This document shows positions 11,400-63,371 of a stretch of 64,000 nt of DNA, one piece after another (position 1 is the stretch's first letter; each line of letters starts with the position of its first letter). This DNA comes from Pseudomonadota bacterium (GTDB lineage Bacteria > Myxococcota > JACRCW01 > JAFGSX01). The stretch is taken from positions 32,001-96,000 of the forward strand of contig JBDRCO010000113.1 in assembly GCA_043821645.1 (NCBI GenBank), given 5' to 3'. The notes beneath the pieces are model-generated. The model saw nothing but the letters and a program-made list of their open reading frames with translations. It did not search any database and was not told where the DNA came from. The position numbers and the translations under genes were made by a program.

Positions 11400-13331
11400 G
11401 TGCGCACCTCGCTCAGCATTCGCATCTTCCTGGGTTTTCTCGCCATGCTGGCGGTTTTCGGCGGCTCGTCGGTGTACGGCATCCTGCGCATGGACGCCAT
11501 CCGCCAGGACCTGCAGTTGACCAGCCAGGGCTACCTGCAGCTCACGCGATCCCTGACCCAGGTCAAGACCATCGCCGAGTCCCGCGATGCCTACGTCGAG
11601 CGCGCCCTGGCCGAGACCGACCCGCGCGTGCGTCAATACCTGGTCCGCTATGCGCGCGACTTCTATCCGCGGGTGCTGCGCGAGCGCCTGGCCGAGCTGG
11701 CGCAGTCGGCGCGCCGGCTCGCGGGGCAATCCCTGCCCGCCTCGGATGCCACCTTCGCGTCCGAAGTGGCTGCCCGCCTGGACCGCGCGGTGGAGCTCAA
11801 CCGGGCAGCGGACAGCGCCGCAGCCGAGTTCTTCGAGCTCGTGGCCGAGGCGCCCACAGCGATCCCTACCGAGGTCCTGGCACGACAGAAGGACAGTGCC
11901 ACCGCGCTCGGCCGCGAGCTCAAGCTGGTCTCGCTCAACCTCGACAACAAGATTGCCCAGGGCGTGCTGCGCGCCGAGGAACAGGAACGCAACGCCGTGT
12001 GGGCCCTGATTGCCCTGGCGCTGGCAGGCGTGGTGGTGGGCCTCACCATCACCGTGGTGCTGACGCGGGCGCTGCGCCCCCTCACCGACCTGACCGAGGC
12101 CGCGCGCGCCATCAGTCGCGGCGCCTTCGATGTGCGCATCGAGGCCACCCGCCGCCATGACGAGATAGGGACCCTGGCCCTGAGCTTCGCGGACATGGCG
12201 CGCGCGCTGCGCGATCGCGAGGTGGTGCTGGCGCGTCGCCGCGTCGAGTTCGAGAGCCTGAACGCCTTTTTGGAGAACGTGCTGCACTCGGTGAGCACGG
12301 GCGTCGTGGTGTGCAACCGCGAGCGCGGGATCACCGTGGCCAACCGGGCGGCGCGACGGCTCATGGGCCTGACCCTGGTGGACCCCGTGGGCCGCAGCAT
12401 CGATGAGATACCTCTGGGAGGCCTGCTCGAGGAGCACTGGACCGAGATCCAGCGTGTGCTCGACGACGCCACGCCGCTCAAGCGCGAGGCGCAGGCTCTG
12501 CGACCGGCCGACGGCCCTAGCGTGCTGGTGGACCTGCGCGTGCTGCCCTTCACCCAGCCCGGCGCGCCTTCCAATGTCGGCGGATGGGTGTTCCTGCTCG
12601 ACGACGTCTCGGAGCGTGAGCGCACCCGTGAGCGCTTGCTGCAGAGCGAGCGCCTGGCCGCCATGGGACGCCTGGCCGCCCAGGTCGCCCACGAGATCCG
12701 CAACCCGCTGTCCTCGATCGGGCTCAACTGCGAACTCCTCGCCGACGACCTGCAGCGGGTGGCCGCGGACGATGGCGACGTGCAGCGTTTGCTGGGCGCC
12801 ATTGCTGCAGAGATTGACCGCCTCACCGAGATCACCGACGGCTATCTGCGCTACGCGCGTCTCCCCGAAGCTAGCCTGCGGCCGGCCGACGTGGGCGACG
12901 TGGTGCGTGACGTGGCTGATTTCGTCCGCGCCGACCTCGAGCGCCGCGGTCTGTCTCTCGAGTTGCAGGTGGCCCGGGACCTGCCCTCGCTGTCCGTGGA
13001 CCCCTCGCGAGTGCGCCTGGCCCTCCTCAACCTCCTGCGCAACGCCGCGGACGCGACCCTTGACGGCGGTTCCATCCAGCTGTCGGTGGACAGGGTCGAC
13101 GACGCGGTGCAGATCTCCGTCGACGACCACGGCGCGGGCGTGCCCGAGGAGTTGGTGCCAAAGCTGTTCGAGGCTTTCTTCTCGACCAAGCCGGATGGGA
13201 CGGGCCTGGGCCTCAGCGTGACCCGCGATGTGGCCCTCGAGCACGGTGGCGTCGCAGGCTATGAGCCACGCTCGGAGGGAGGCTCGCGGTTTTTCCTTCG
13301 GCTGGCGGCCTTGCCTCCGCAAGATGGGTAA
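11400..13331 (+). CDS. Membrane sensor histidine kinase (TM-HAMP-PAS-HisKA-HATPase)
   Basis: Two TM segments, HAMP (HDEIGTLA..F), AHEIRNPL, NLLRNA, DHGAG, GTGLGL. Confidence 0.93.
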   Translation: MRTSLSIRIFLGFLAMLAVFGGSSVYGILRMDAIRQDLQLTSQGYLQLTRSLTQVKTIAESRDAYVERALAETDPRVRQYLVRYARDFYPRVLRERLAELAQSARRLAGQSLPASDATFASEVAARLDRAVELNRAADSAAAEFFELVAEAPTAIPTEVLARQKDSATALGRELKLVSLNLDNKIAQGVLRAEEQERNAVWALIALALAGVVVGLTITVVLTRALRPLTDLTEAARAISRGAFDVRIEATRRHDEIGTLALSFADMARALRDREVVLARRRVEFESLNAFLENVLHSVSTGVVVCNRERGITVANRAARRLMGLTLVDPVGRSIDEIPLGGLLEEHWTEIQRVLDDATPLKREAQALRPADGPSVLVDLRVLPFTQPGAPSNVGGWVFLLDDVSERERTRERLLQSERLAAMGRLAAQVAHEIRNPLSSIGLNCELLADDLQRVAADDGDVQRLLGAIAAEIDRLTEITDGYLRYARLPEASLRPADVGDVVRDVADFVRADLERRGLSLELQVARDLPSLSVDPSRVRLALLNLLRNAADATLDGGSIQLSVDRVDDAVQISVDDHGAGVPEELVPKLFEAFFSTKPDGTGLGLSVTRDVALEHGGVAGYEPRSEGGSRFFLRLAALPPQDG

Positions 13332-13827
13332 TAGTTTAATTATATCTTTATCTTACAATTTTTTTGGCCTCTCACTTCACATGCAGCGGACGGCGGCAGG
13401 GTCGGGCAGCCCGCCTGGCCCGAGTATCCGTCTGTGTGGCACGACGGGCCCTGAGCCGACGATTCTCACGCTTTTCCTGATGGCACATGCACTACATGCA
13501 CTGTCACGTGCTGAACAGTCCGAAAATCGAACTTCAATCGGTGGGTCTCACTGGGTTTTTTGCAACGACTGGTCTTTTTCAGATGCTGTCAAAACCGATG
13601 CTGCCTTGAAGAAGGGACTGATTTGCGGCGCGATCACAAGTTTTCAAGATCGTGTTATTGCTTGCAGTTTGATCGCTGGAGGCCAGGCAGAGGGCCAGGG
13701 TCGTTTATTTTTATTTGTTATTTCATATAGATACAGAACTTTTTGATATCACATGTTTTTTTGTAACCACCCTGAGGGGTGTGCAAATCTTAACCACCAC
13801 GATTGTTGAAACGCGCTTTTTCAAACC

Positions 13828-13855
13828 TTGACAAGGATCGGCCCCTGGCTAAGAT
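13828..13855 (+). promoter_or_regulatory. Putative sigma70-type promoter
   Basis: TTGACA (13828-13833), 16-bp spacer, TAAGAT (13850-13855), at the end of an AT-rich tract and directly before a structured region. Confidence 0.6.
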
Positions 13856-13860
13856 GCCAA

Positions 13861-14080
13861 GCAGTTGCGACGGGCTCTCTCTTGGAGGACGAACTGGGTT
13901 GACGTTTGGCGGACAGACAATCCTCGTAGCCATCTGGTCCTTCCGTTGAACGTCATCCCTGTTGGTCGGCCGAGAGAAGAGCCGCTCACGGTCGCCCTAG
14001 ACCTCAACACACACCGAGGTCTTCTGGTCTCCGGGTCGCCCCAAGGGGCGGCCCGGAGGCTCCCCCGTCTCCCCCGGACT
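13861..14080 (+). ncRNA. Candidate structured small RNA (long rod plus two hairpins)
   Basis: Manual pairing: rod 13867-13995, hairpin AGACCTC/GAGGTCT 13999-14022, GC-rich hairpin 14029-14058; lies just downstream of the promoter; no credible ORF. Confidence 0.55.
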
Positions 14081-14184
14081 TCCTGTCACCCCTGCATAGG
14101 TTCTTCAGCAGTGAGCTGCGACCAAGGAGACAGGCCCCCAGTGTGCTGCCAGCCCCCTGGCGAGATGCAGCACAGTCCCGGGAC

Positions 14185-14553
14185 ATGAACTCCCTGCGCA
14201 ACGAACTCGTCGAGCAGCTGGTTCGCGAGCTGTGGCACGATCCGACCCAGGCCAGCCGCAACCGCCACTTTCAAGCCTTCCAGGGCGACCTGGGGCGCCG
14301 CGCCCTGCGCTGCTATCGCCTGCTGCGCTCGCTGCGCCGTGAGCTCCTGCTCGCCGACCGGGTGACGGTGGAGCGTGATGGGCGTGGCACCTCCGTCATG
14401 GTCGAACTGCACGGCGTGCATGCCCGCCGGCGGGTGTCCCTGACGCCCCGACTGTTCGCCTTGCTCCAGGACGACGAGGAACTGCGCCATCGCCTGCCGG
14501 GAGACGTGGCTGCGGGAGGTCCGATCGAGGGCCCGCTGCGCGGCCTCAGTTGA
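14185..14553 (+). CDS. Hypothetical protein
   Basis: 122-aa ORF (SRNRHF motif) that resembles small myxobacterial hypotheticals from memory; converges on the next gene. Confidence 0.7.
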   Translation: MNSLRNELVEQLVRELWHDPTQASRNRHFQAFQGDLGRRALRCYRLLRSLRRELLLADRVTVERDGRGTSVMVELHGVHARRRVSLTPRLFALLQDDEELRHRLPGDVAAGGPIEGPLRGLS

Positions 14554-17500
14554 CCTTGTCGAGGATCTGGGAGTCGCTCTGTGTCCCCGCACGCCAGGTC
14601 AGGGTGGTGCGGTCCCGCGCCGTGTGATCGTCGAAGTCGAAGTTGTCCACCTTGAGCTGGAACAGGGTCCAGAAATGGTTGCCCGTGGGGATGTTGTCGA
14701 TCCGGGTCTCACCGCCCAGCTCGGGCAGGGTGATGGTTCGCGGGTCGCCCCTGACGATCACGGTCCACAGCGGCGTGAAGCTGTCGTTGCCGGAGTCGTA
14801 GACCGAGATGATGGTCATGTCAGGGGTGGCGCCCCCCGAACGCGCGAAGGTGAATCGGCCCTCGGTGGGGCTCTGGGTGGTGCCATTCTGGAACGAGCTG
14901 GAGGTGAACTGCGGGAAGAACACCCAGGTCGACAGCATGGGAGGCGACATGCTGGTCAGATTGCGCACGAAGGAGTTGGCAGTGGGGGTGGTGAAGTCCA
15001 CGATGGTGTTGCCATCGACCACCGGGGCGGAGACGTAGCCGCGTACCGTGTAGGTCCAGGCTCCCCGCAGCAGTGGCACGGGGCCGAAGTTGATGCCCGA
15101 ACCATCGCCCTTGAGCTGCCCCAGAAACACGAAGTTTCCACTGTTGCCCGTGTGCAGGTAGGCGTCCGCGGTGTAGGCCGTGCCGTTGGCCCCGAGGTAG
15201 GTCGGGTTGCTGTTGATGCTGGCGTTGAAGGCGACGGCAGGCACGTCGAGGTTGATGTTGTTGCCGCCGGTGGCTCCGCCTCCGCCTTGCACATTGATGT
15301 CGGTGGTGATGCCGTAGGTGGCGCCGATGGTGCCCCAGATGAAGAAGCCGAAGCCATCGTACCAGGCCGAGCCCAGCCAGCCCTCGCAGTTCTGATTGCC
15401 CTGCTGCTGGCACTGCGCCGTCCCCGACACGGGCTGGTTGCCACACACGCCGTCGACGGAATCCCAGAAGGCCACAGAGGCGATCACTGCGTGCACGCCG
15501 GGCGAAGAATTGACCGAGTAGCTGGCGTCCCCCAGCACGGTCGCGGTGCCGTCGGGGAGGACCAGGGAACACGTGGCCTGGTCGCTGCGAATCTCGATGG
15601 CCCAGGATTCGATTCCTGGCGGGTAGTTGCCGTTAAGGATATCGGAGTGCGACGGAACCACCTGGGCCACGCGGTAGTAGCGGTTGGCCGGGTTGCCCGT
15701 GGGGAGACCCGCATTGGACCAGCCCGTCACCGTTCCACTGATCACGCCGTGATCGTAGGGCTGCGCATTGGGGTTCTTGGGCGTCAACAGCACGGTCACA
15801 TTCTGCGCGTTGAGGCCGATGATGCTCGTGGTCTCGAAATCGGTGGCGCCGACCGTGATCATGAGCGGTCCCTGTAAAACCTTGTCACCCGACAGCACCG
15901 TCATTCCGTTCACGTCGGTGACACCCTTGTTGTACGAGCCCTCGGTCACGTTGCCGTCGTCACCGGCGAACACCACCGCGTTGCGCAGCCGGGTCAGGTC
16001 ATCGTCGCGAATGACCGTAATACTGAGGTTGTGAGCGATGGGACCGCCGCCGTGGACCGCGTCCTTGTCGGTGGGATCTACCACCTGCAGCACCTCGGTG
16101 TCCTCCTGACCCGTCTCGTTGTTGCGCACCAGCAGGGTCTTCTGCCCCTCGTTCATGGGCCCGCGCGAGCGGAAGGTCAGGATGTGCAGGTCGACCTGGT
16201 CGCGCTGCAGGTCGTCCACCGGGTTGCCGTCGATGGTGACCGTCATGTTGATGGCCTCGGCAAAACCTGTACCCACCACGGTGATGAAGGTGCGCCCAGC
16301 CTTGGACAGGATGCTGGGCGTCACGGTCTGGATGCGCGTGAATTCCCGGAAGGCCACACCCACCCACTCGGCCGAGGTCTCGAACTCCGTCTGCACCGTG
16401 ACCGGGATGTCCTCGCCCTCGGGATGCGGCGGTGCATTGCAGGTGAGCTCGGCCTGGTTGGTCACGATGACATTGGTTGCGGCCATGTTGCCGAAGAACA
16501 CCTGGGTGCTGCCAATGGTGAAGCCCTCGCCATTGACGGTGACGGTGTCACCCCCGGCCGAGGGCAACACCGTGGGCGTGACCTGGGTGATGACCGGTAC
16601 CCGATAATAAGTGAATCCATTTTCGAGCGTGGCGACGTCGGCCTGGCGGTGCGCGGTGACCGCCACAGGCTCTGACACCAGGGTTCCTGCCAGGGCGTAG
16701 GGCGGGGTCTGCACCCGGATGCTGGTGCTGGTCACCTGGTCGATGGCGGCCTCGGTGCCTGCAAACTGGATGGTGACCAGGCTGTCGAAGCCAGTGCCGG
16801 TGATCTCGACCTGGGTGCCACCCGCATTGCGGCCGATGCGCGGATTGACGTCGAGGATGCGCAGGGTCGTATCCGTCGAGCTGTAGTAGGTGAAACCGCC
16901 CGCCAGCATCCCTTCATCACCCGGCGCGCGGCGCACCACCACGTCGACGGAACCCGCGGTGCTGGCGACAGGCACCGTGGCGGTGATGGTGGTGGAGTTG
17001 ACCACCGTGTAGGTGACCGCGTCGTTGCCGCCAAACAGCACCGCGACGGCGCCATCAAAGGCACTGCCGATGATGGTGACCTGGCGGGTCTGGTTCATGA
17101 AGGCCCAGTTGGGGGTCACGCCCGAGACCACCACCGGATCGCGCACGGTCAGGCCCGCGGGCAACACCGCCTCCCGATTGTCGCCGTTGCGCACCAGGAC
17201 GTCGTAGCTGCCAACCGTGAGCGCGGGTAGCTGGGCCTCGATCGCGGTGTCGCTCGAGGAGATCAGGGCCAGCTGCTGCGTGCCGACGCGGACGACGGGA
17301 TCGATGGCGTCGACCACGAAGCCGCTGCCGTTGATGGTCAAGGTGGTCGCGGCATTGGCCGGGATGGCGAAGGGTGAGATGCCGGAGATGGTCACGGCCT
17401 GCTGATAGGTGAAGGCATCGAGCAGTTCTCCGGTGCCCGCCGACGAGGTGGCCTTGATGGAGACCACGCCGCGCGCGGCCGGCGGTGAGATCACGACCAG

Positions 17501-17746
17501 CTCACTGGCGGTGGCGGACTCGATGCTGGCGGCCGCCGTGCCAAAGGCCACGGTGGTGACGTTGGCAAGATTGGCACCAGCCAGGGTCACGGTGTCCGCA
17601 CCGCTGGTCAGGCCAATGCTTGGCGAGATCGCGATCAGGCTCGGTGCGGGGGGAGGCAGGGGTGGCGGCGGTGGATCCGGTGGAGGCTCACAACCCGCAG
17701 CACCCAGGACTCCCAACACCACAAGCCATGCGACATGACGATGCAT
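14546..17746 (-). CDS. Large IPT/TIG-repeat lipoprotein
   Basis: Signal peptide with LGAAGC, Pro-rich linker, about six repeats of the type I..(I/V).P..G...GG..V.I.G.GF, then a beta-rich C-terminal region. Confidence 0.9.
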   Translation of the reverse strand: MHRHVAWLVVLGVLGAAGCEPPPDPPPPPLPPPAPSLIAISPSIGLTSGADTVTLAGANLANVTTVAFGTAAASIESATASELVVISPPAARGVVSIKATSSAGTGELLDAFTYQQAVTISGISPFAIPANAATTLTINGSGFVVDAIDPVVRVGTQQLALISSSDTAIEAQLPALTVGSYDVLVRNGDNREAVLPAGLTVRDPVVVSGVTPNWAFMNQTRQVTIIGSAFDGAVAVLFGGNDAVTYTVVNSTTITATVPVASTAGSVDVVVRRAPGDEGMLAGGFTYYSSTDTTLRILDVNPRIGRNAGGTQVEITGTGFDSLVTIQFAGTEAAIDQVTSTSIRVQTPPYALAGTLVSEPVAVTAHRQADVATLENGFTYYRVPVITQVTPTVLPSAGGDTVTVNGEGFTIGSTQVFFGNMAATNVIVTNQAELTCNAPPHPEGEDIPVTVQTEFETSAEWVGVAFREFTRIQTVTPSILSKAGRTFITVVGTGFAEAINMTVTIDGNPVDDLQRDQVDLHILTFRSRGPMNEGQKTLLVRNNETGQEDTEVLQVVDPTDKDAVHGGGPIAHNLSITVIRDDDLTRLRNAVVFAGDDGNVTEGSYNKGVTDVNGMTVLSGDKVLQGPLMITVGATDFETTSIIGLNAQNVTVLLTPKNPNAQPYDHGVISGTVTGWSNAGLPTGNPANRYYRVAQVVPSHSDILNGNYPPGIESWAIEIRSDQATCSLVLPDGTATVLGDASYSVNSSPGVHAVIASVAFWDSVDGVCGNQPVSGTAQCQQQGNQNCEGWLGSAWYDGFGFFIWGTIGATYGITTDINVQGGGGATGGNNINLDVPAVAFNASINSNPTYLGANGTAYTADAYLHTGNSGNFVFLGQLKGDGSGINFGPVPLLRGAWTYTVRGYVSAPVVDGNTIVDFTTPTANSFVRNLTSMSPPMLSTWVFFPQFTSSSFQNGTTQSPTEGRFTFARSGGATPDMTIISVYDSGNDSFTPLWTVIVRGDPRTITLPELGGETRIDNIPTGNHFWTLFQLKVDNFDFDDHTARDRTTLTWRAGTQSDSQILDKVN

Positions 17747-17885
17747 TGCCCACTCCTTTGGCTTCGCTCGCACCACGCCAGACCAGCGCACGCCTGTACC
17801 CGGAGCGCCGATCCCGCGTTCCCAGACCCATATTATCGCATCCTGCGCCCAGGGAGTGCCCCCGGTGTCCCGGGCCCCCCGGAAC

Positions 17886-18716
17886 TCACCACCAGGGCTG
17901 GAGCTGCCCCTCGAAGACCACCTCGCTGGGACCGCGCAGCCAGGCCTGCCAGCGATCGTCGATGGTGACCTGCAGCAACCCACCTGGCATGCGCACCTCG
18001 ATCGATCGACCGGCCTCGACTTGCCCCGCGAGGATCAAGGCTCCGACCGCCGCGCAGGCTCCTGAACCACAGGCCAGGGTGCGGCCCACGCCGCGCTCGT
18101 AGACCTCGACCTCGCAACGATCGCCATCGATCCGCTGCACCCACTCGACGTTGGTCCCTTCGATGAAGGAGGGATGACCGCTCAGGGTGGCGCCCAGCGT
18201 TTCCACCTCGTCGGGCAGGCCGTGGCGGAGCAGCACGAGGTGCGGGTTGCCCAGGGACAGCGCAAAGGCGGGTACCTGGCTCGTCCCGAGGTGCATCAGG
18301 TGGCCCTGCCAGGTCTCCCCACCGGCCACACCCTCGCTCTGGACCGTTCCCATCTCGACCTCGACATCCGCCCGTCGCCCCTGGCCACCGCCATGGATCA
18401 CGCAGCGTCGCATACCCATGTCGGTCTCGAGGCGAAGCGAGGTCGGCAGGCCGTGCTGCCAGACCAGGTAGTGGGCAGCGCAGCGAAGGCCGTTGCCACA
18501 CATCTCGGCCCGGCTGCCATCGGCGTTGAGGAACACGACGCGACCGCCGTCCGGTGGGTTCGAGCGCACGAGGATCAGGCCGTCGGCCCCGATGCCCTCG
18601 TGCAGCGCGCACAGGTGCCGGGCGATTGCCGCGGGGTCCTTGACCGTTCGCTCTCCCTCGTCGAGGATGACGAAGTCGTTGCGGGCGCCGTGCATCTTCA
18701 CGAAGCGGAGTTCCAT
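17886..18716 (-). CDS. dapF: Diaminopimelate epimerase
   Basis: KMHGARNDF, GIGADG, NADGSRAEMCGNGLRC, GNPH, ERGVGRTLACGSGACA. Confidence 0.96.
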   Translation of the reverse strand: MELRFVKMHGARNDFVILDEGERTVKDPAAIARHLCALHEGIGADGLILVRSNPPDGGRVVFLNADGSRAEMCGNGLRCAAHYLVWQHGLPTSLRLETDMGMRRCVIHGGGQGRRADVEVEMGTVQSEGVAGGETWQGHLMHLGTSQVPAFALSLGNPHLVLLRHGLPDEVETLGATLSGHPSFIEGTNVEWVQRIDGDRCEVEVYERGVGRTLACGSGACAAVGALILAGQVEAGRSIEVRMPGGLLQVTIDDRWQAWLRGPSEVVFEGQLQPWW

Positions 18717-63110: not shown

Positions 63111-63371
63111 GAGCGCCCCCGTCGGGGAGGGTTCGCTGCCCATCCACCGGTTCGCGCCCACTGTAAACAGGGGCCCCGAACATCGCAACCACCCCGCCAC
63201 TTGGGGGGCTCCCCACGCGCGCAGCGCAGGCCTGCTGTTTCCTGTTGAGCCGAAAAGTTGCGCACGATTCAGAAAGTCGCCATGATGGCCCAGACGCGAG
63301 GGTGGTACGTCGCCACCGTCGATTTTCAAGGGACTTTGCGCGCCGGTGGGCGCGCCGTGCGAGTGACCCAC

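Follow-up and report, generated by a model that had tools for sequence, protein, structure and literature searches.

Positions 13861-14080 of the window (the whole stretch of 64,000 nucleotides analysed here, whose coordinates are used throughout) probably belong to a gene for a trans-acting antisense small RNA which, acting independently of Hfq and in a manner similar to IhtA of Chlamydia, would repress the translation of a tiny histone-H1-like protein. The DNA carries a promoter-like site, a stable predicted fold, a 3′ core that is conserved in a relative, a 16-nt complement of a distant gene start displayed in an open loop, and a syntenic setting, and we are confident that the locus is a real, uncatalogued and family-restricted gene of a structured RNA. 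The genome that holds the window, termed G000, is 94.7% complete and has 67% GC; the family contains a single other genome, G001, and the class adds two more, so that the lineage is thinly sampled, and it appears to be uncultured.

Locus, fold and conservation of the predicted RNA

The region 13861-14080 lies in an intergenic stretch of some 850 bases that separates a histidine kinase gene from a 122-codon hypothetical gene. The features of the locus and of the putative target are the following:

11400..13331, + strand: HAMP-PAS-HisKA-HATPase histidine kinase, not PxrK; upstream context
13828..13855, + strand: sigma-70-type promoter TTGACA-16-TAAGAT, 10 of 12 matches; presumed to be active
13861..14087, + strand: predicted small RNA of about 220-230 nt, both ends estimated
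13867..13995, + strand: long imperfect rod of about 45 bp, firm part 13873-13984
13919..13936, + strand: terminal loop of the rod, 18 nt, in the predicted fold
13937..13948, + strand: top of the 3′ arm of the rod, which may extend the target duplex after bulges
13999..14022, + strand: second hairpin of 7 bp with a CA-rich loop, AACACACACC, in the predicted fold
14026..14061, + strand: GC-rich third hairpin, 16 pairs counting G-U pairs
14060..14075, + strand: C-rich 3′ tail without a U-tail, CTCCCCC tracts at 14060-66 and 14069-75
14185..14553, + strand: conserved hypothetical gene of 122 codons, downstream; possible read-through partner
contig C87:63198-63359, − strand: putative target, a Lys/Ala-rich gene of 53 codons with ATG at 63359 and with its own promoter and terminator

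A preliminary description of this DNA, based on its letters and open reading frames, had proposed a strong promoter in front of the RNA. TTGACA-16-TAAGAT is indeed present at 13828-13855, and it is the sole promoter-like site within the 2 kb from 13000 to 15000 (0.2 ± 0.4 in shuffled sequences); its counterpart in G001, TTGACA-16-TAATAT, has equal spacing. Judging from the promoter spacing, the 5′ end of the RNA would lie at about 13861. For the 3′ end a hint comes from a single low-depth contig of a close relative (run X5, depth under 5), which has no differences over 14040-14087 and 11 differences over 14088-14140, so that the change point near 14087 may mark where the RNA ends. A U-tailed terminator was not found 3′ of the RNA.

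The minimum-energy fold of 13861-14080 reaches −115.5 kcal/mol, compared with −87.8 ± 5.2 kcal/mol for shuffled sequences (z −5.37, none of 200 as stable), which answers in favour of the fold the comparison with shuffles suggested earlier. Both parts contribute when folded separately, the rod (13867-13995) with z −5.2 and the 3′ part (13996-14070) with z −5.5, in each case with none of 300 shuffles as stable, while the reverse strand of the rod folds less stably (z −3.7). All seven nested helices attributed to the rod occur in the minimum-energy fold, although the outermost one, GCGAC/GTCGC, is weak, i.e., it is missing from the centroid and has pair probabilities of about 0.5-0.7 in a longer fold. 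The 7-bp hairpin, the GC hairpin and the two CTCCCCC tracts were likewise recovered, the GC stem having 16 pairs with G-U pairs included, instead of the 14 reported. Since a contig from a second study (X2) is identical over 13715-14100, the rod is not an assembly artefact. The Rfam scan, which had also been recommended, yielded no family at threshold in the region, with noise only at E ≤ 10, and within the scan of the window no RNase P signature appeared, in agreement with the earlier reading.

The search for homologues and covariation gave a divided answer. In G001 the gene order is as in G000, and a shorter RNA of about 100 nt (z −4.1) can be recognized behind the promoter; it keeps the second stem (ACCTC/GAGGT), the linker, the GC hairpin and the first C-tract, the loop of the second hairpin differs, and a segment of about 30 nt replaces the rod. 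All 16 pairs of the GC hairpin are kept, with one double change, three one-sided changes and a different loop, and of all the pairs counted 20 of 20 are kept, again with one double and three single-sided changes. Thus promoter and 3′ core are shared, but the rod is absent, and the covariation of the core, computed from two sequences, is non-significant (258 of 500 shuffles as high); neither the rod, which has been seen in a single species, nor the target duplex offers covariation.

Wider searches pointed to the same narrow distribution. A DNA search of 61 genomes retrieved only G001 as a genuine homologue, and a pattern scan of the genome collection gave 19 loci, 18 of which proved on inspection to be chance matches and one identical to the G001 locus. 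A covariance model built from the two sequences and run over 150 genomes returned, beyond G000 and G001, two weak matches that are generic hairpins; over 45 selected loci it gave one weak match (E 0.028). Viral contigs yielded no homologues and G000 no paralogues; three loci of G000 that seemed to resemble the G001 RNA were chance G-U-rich matches. In reads and contigs from 4 of the 14 listed sequencing runs, none of a diverged relative spans the rod, and a metagenome scan with an alignment of the kinase gave 80 loci at 26-47% identity, none at the family level, while a protein collection holds eight further family-level kinases at 62-70% identity.

Several observations concern the surroundings of the RNA. 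The 500-nt gap at 13332-13830 is unusually AT-rich in G000 and G001 and includes a terminator-like hairpin at 13538-13554; over 13385-13571 the close-relative contig shows 12 differences, of which the nine listed all fall before 13456, and the stretch past that position may be another conserved element. A near-palindrome, GT[ACT]CGA-(A/T)3-TCG[AGT]AC, has nine copies in the genome, often in AT-richer gaps. One of them lies in the window at 13518-13532, about 310 nt 5′ of the RNA promoter, and another at C87:63484, about 125 nt 5′ of the target start; as both genes have a copy upstream, they may share a regulator. In the two G001 loci checked, a full copy was not seen. On the other side of the RNA, the 122-codon gene was found in the phylum in 193 genomes out of 301 (a tally that includes G195, marked unpublished), and its protein received no assignment from Pfam, NCBIfam or Atlas. 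In many relatives a TG-n-TAnnnT box was noticed by eye about 10-20 nt before the start of this gene, suggesting short-leader transcripts. Further downstream, at 14546-17983 on the − strand, lies the gene of a large protein that has five IPT/TIG domains and an N-terminus resembling that of a lipoprotein; it is syntenic in G001.

Complementarity to the start of a Lys/Ala-rich gene

Outside its own locus, the rod has its best match on contig C87, where 21 of 22 bases correspond, as reverse complement, to the Shine-Dalgarno sequence, the ATG and the first codons of the 53-codon gene. In particular, 13921-13936, i.e., 16 of the 18 loop bases, are an exact complement of the target mRNA from −3 to +13, and this site is among the three most accessible of the 212 16-mers in the RNA. 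The loop duplex was computed at −31.4 kcal/mol, with opening costs of 0.36 (RNA) and 2.3 (mRNA), thus a net value of about −29. An extended duplex of 28 nt, running over the Shine-Dalgarno sequence to about −15, reaches −50.1 kcal/mol; since 17.1 (RNA) and 10.2 (mRNA) must be paid to open it, the most favourable net contact is that of the loop duplex by itself.

The gene at this site has a promoter (TTGACA-16-TAAAAT) and a terminator of its own, is divergent from lptA-lptB-like genes, and has a syntenic orthologue in G001 with promoter-like and terminator-like sites read by eye; with its own signals and a syntenic orthologue, it looks like a genuine gene. Its 53-residue product consists of 27 Lys, 16 Ala, 3 Pro, 3 Val, 2 Thr and 1 Arg, with no acidic residue, and on this composition alone may be called histone-H1-like; neither it nor the G001 orthologue matched a family of NCBIfam or Pfam above noise.

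When 300 genomes of the phylum were scanned (again with the unpublished G195 included), 81 showed a DNA pattern related to that of tiny Lys/Ala-repeat genes, and an exact look-up of two such proteins in a collection of 15 billion proteins found neither. Within G000, other Lys/Ala-repeat proteins are encoded at C63 ~455 (−), C83 ~1130-1800 (−), C38:7007 (+) and C23 ~199302 (−), and none of these genes pairs well with the loop seed. One Lys/Ala-repeat protein of the genome carries GRPK repeats, which we take to be AT-hook-like. Tiny Lys/Ala-rich genes of 26-56 codons with a clear Shine-Dalgarno sequence, in some cases preceded by a TTGACA promoter, were met repeatedly in the class and the phylum, e.g., at L241 (G002:C35 ~7621, −), L212, L215, L226 and L235.

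How specific the match is was assessed against 11,239 candidate starts of the genome, defined by an ATG, an SD-like motif and a frame of at least 40 codons; it is an inflated set, from which the antisense frame of the RNA itself was left out. With a 33-nt seed, picked after the match had been seen, the target ranks first of 11,239 (−47.9, next −40.7, mean −21.5). It ranks first also when the whole RNA is scanned with accessibility weighting (−29.6, next −26.2), with a margin that is modest because the RNA of G001 reaches −24 against G000 starts by chance. In 5,000 dinucleotide shuffles, a 16-nt match in any start window arose in 241 and one over the ATG in 25; if shuffles and accessibility are taken as roughly independent, the joint chance would be of the order of 1 in 10,000. 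The two other exact 16-nt matches of the RNA in the genome both come from the paired GC hairpin, and neither is at a candidate start.

In a reverse control, the 16-mer over the ATG had another exact copy for 3,148 of the 11,239 starts; the first copy per start was tested (3,148 of 8,144 copies, in two batches that overlap slightly and leave out some copies at contig ends). Seven copies were accessible on the complementary strand, and among these seven the RNA/target pair has the most stable surrounding fold (−65.3 vs. −46 to −52). The trans-acting role proposed in the preliminary description is thereby supported, with the rod loop, complementary to one gene start, as the pairing element. The C-rich tracts, to which that role had been assigned, do not stand out, since neither they nor the core gave an outstanding target among the candidate starts.

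In G001, the RNA has a 10-nt complement to the Shine-Dalgarno sequence and spacer of its own orthologue, formed by the second stem and linker and not by a rod loop. This match ranks 345th against the 11,239 background starts, 300 of 6,000 are as good in cofolding, and it is the best of 14 windows at 5%, thus marginal (top 3-5% of background), G001 being the one relative available. A long complement of the orthologous start was found neither elsewhere in G001 nor in G002, and a gene first taken as the equivalent start turned out to encode a longer protein with a Lys-rich N-terminus and is not a tiny gene. Given the marginal G001 match and the lack of a long complement in G001 and G002, strong pairing has so far been seen in a single species.

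Alternative readings of the locus

The same features may be read in other ways. A real small RNA could have its function in the conserved 3′ core, for example as a general anti-Shine-Dalgarno element or a protein-binding scaffold, with a lineage-specific rod whose loop match is due to chance or secondary. The promoter and core alone are common to G001, which lacks the rod and has no strong match to its own orthologue; yet the loop match is improbable by chance, and core and tail gave no outstanding target, which makes this reading unlikely. It is also conceivable, with a rather low probability, that instead of a free RNA the structure forms a cis-acting 5′ leader, an attenuator or translational control element, of the downstream 122-codon gene. 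There is no intrinsic terminator past the hairpins, and the G001 copy of the gene probably starts some 10 nt past the C-tract, a GGAGG being hidden within the GC hairpin; in G000, however, the ATG is about 110 nt beyond the C-tracts, past a stretch that is variable in the close relative. At 28 other loci of the gene the TG-n-TAnnnT box, not seen in G000 and G001, mostly precedes the gene start (by eye), but the RNA was not found upstream of the gene at those loci, and a leader leaves the loop match unexplained. The RNA could also be both, a leader and a processed small RNA, and transcription may run on into the downstream gene, particularly in G001.

The complementarity itself could have another origin, if the functional element were a 47-codon frame on the minus strand, with the plus-strand RNA as its cis-antisense, or if the rod were a decayed inverted copy of the target start that no longer serves a function. 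A frame start with an SD-like site does exist at 13933 and shares 16 nt with the target start by identical match. But no minus-strand promoter was found, the frame is missing in G001, the minus strand folds less well, and the likeness extends over only about 28 nt, which coincide precisely with the loop and the upper end of the stem; we therefore hold both variants to be very improbable. Least credible is the assignment to known classes, whether as a remote homologue of Pxr, as another RNA of the 6S type or as a retron msr-msd, for which the kinase gene followed by three stem-loops, the C-rich tracts and the long rod might speak. SRP RNA, tmRNA and 6S had been dismissed from the start, correctly so, as each has its own gene elsewhere in the genome; the 6S RNA (RF00013) is at C68 with 61.6 bits, whereas the present locus has no match and its rod no central bubble. 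No RVT_1 match, as a retron would require, was found in G000 (94.7% complete), and none adjoins the RNA.

The kinship with Pxr, which the preliminary description had considered without confirming it, is contradicted on the features tested. The RF01812 model gave no match at E ≤ 10 in G000 (150 of 1,607 candidates scored) and none at E ≤ 0.01 in G001; the search scored 150 candidates per genome, which sufficed for the positive controls, since all four control genomes passed the cut-off. The promoter is of the sigma-70 type, while pxr loci have sigma-54 promoters, and no response regulator lies between kinase and RNA. The C-rich loop of stem-loop 1 and the U-rich 3′ tail are both absent. Nor is the kinase PxrK: in the pxr-bearing genome G117 it scores 180 bits to another kinase vs. 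120 bits to the kinase beside pxr, and the locus of the 180-bit kinase also carries an orthologue of the 122-codon downstream gene. As an observation on Pxr itself, seven tandem matches to its model, about 325 bases apart, were seen at G203:C1:1698204-1700263 (L175-L181); pxr is multi-copy in some species.

Proposed mechanism and comparison with known small RNAs

Under the preferred reading of an antisense RNA acting in trans, we infer expression, binding, repression and the role of the protein as follows. The RNA would be transcribed from the conserved sigma-70-type promoter and would present its guide in its one large open loop, which would make the first contact at the AUG and first codons of the target mRNA. 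Invasion of the upper rod by the mRNA may follow, so that the Shine-Dalgarno sequence of the mRNA would be covered as well, 30S loading would be blocked and translation of the target switched off. Hfq (PF17209) was found in none of the four genomes of the class, which are 82-96% complete, and since the exact match is long, Hfq would presumably be unnecessary. As there is no U-tail, the 3′ end of the RNA is probably defined or shielded by the GC hairpin together with the C-tail. The polycationic protein may bind nucleic acid or polyphosphate; if it is a condensing protein, the RNA would hold it off until the RNA itself is lowered.

The closest parallel is IhtA. The accounts consulted describe loop 1 of IhtA as occluding the start codon of hctA, which encodes a histone-H1-like condensing protein, without Hfq, and this control as gating genome condensation in Chlamydia (PMC4355289; PMC3469542; PMC8343073). 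The present RNA resembles IhtA, as described there, in its three predicted stem-loops, in a first loop that covers the start codon of a trans-encoded gene for a small, basic H1-like protein, in a predicted pairing that reaches the Shine-Dalgarno sequence and in a host without Hfq (PMC4355289). What is shared, an open loop whose bases complement the start codon of a small basic gene in trans, is present here as computed complementarity and composition. IhtA is described as an RNA of 107 nt, conserved across Chlamydia, with a rho-independent terminator and about 7 nt of pairing being enough (PMC4355289), whereas the RNA considered here has about 220-230 nt, a 16-nt exact match atop a rod of about 45 bp that occurs in one species, and no U-tail. 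It was not assigned to an IhtA family, as there was no Rfam match and the host phylum is that of pxr-bearing genomes and not chlamydial.

H-NS, to our knowledge, is not a Lys/Ala-repeat protein. With this difference, a looser likeness may be drawn to DsrA and hns of E. coli, described as a three-stem-loop RNA that acts in trans and blocks translation of the mRNA of a nucleoid protein; in that account, DsrA is about 90 nt long, Hfq-dependent and pairs imperfectly with several targets via a linker and the second stem-loop (PMC5766208). With Pxr of Myxococcaceae the RNA shares the phylum, three stem-loops of which the last is GC-rich, and a position behind a two-component gene, but the sigma-54 promoter behind pxrK-pxrR, the C-rich loop on stem-loop 1 and the U-tail, as described for Pxr, are all lacking here (PMC5684412; PMC5568312). 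The literature searched held no such RNA/target pair for Myxococcota; supplementary small RNA catalogues of myxobacterial transcriptomes could bear on novelty.

A further, more tentative reading concerns the origin of the pairing, namely that a conserved two-hairpin scaffold gained the 130-nt rod as a new guide, while the relative pairs via 10 scaffold nucleotides; such a modular retargeting of a small RNA is possible, though doubtful.

If the antisense reading is true, it would provide a precise pair of small RNA and target in an uncultured lineage, testable in E. coli, and a case of a small RNA gaining a new target module. It would also point to tiny Lys/Ala-repeat genes as factors of chromatin or polyphosphate that are under regulation; for H1-like proteins of the repeat type, AlgP among them, a link to polyphosphate granules is reported (PMC9239181). 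Should the retargeting also hold, the switch would control nucleoid condensation or dormancy via small genes missed by annotation and, taken together with IhtA, an antisense check on a minimal polycationic protein would have arisen repeatedly, in distant phyla.
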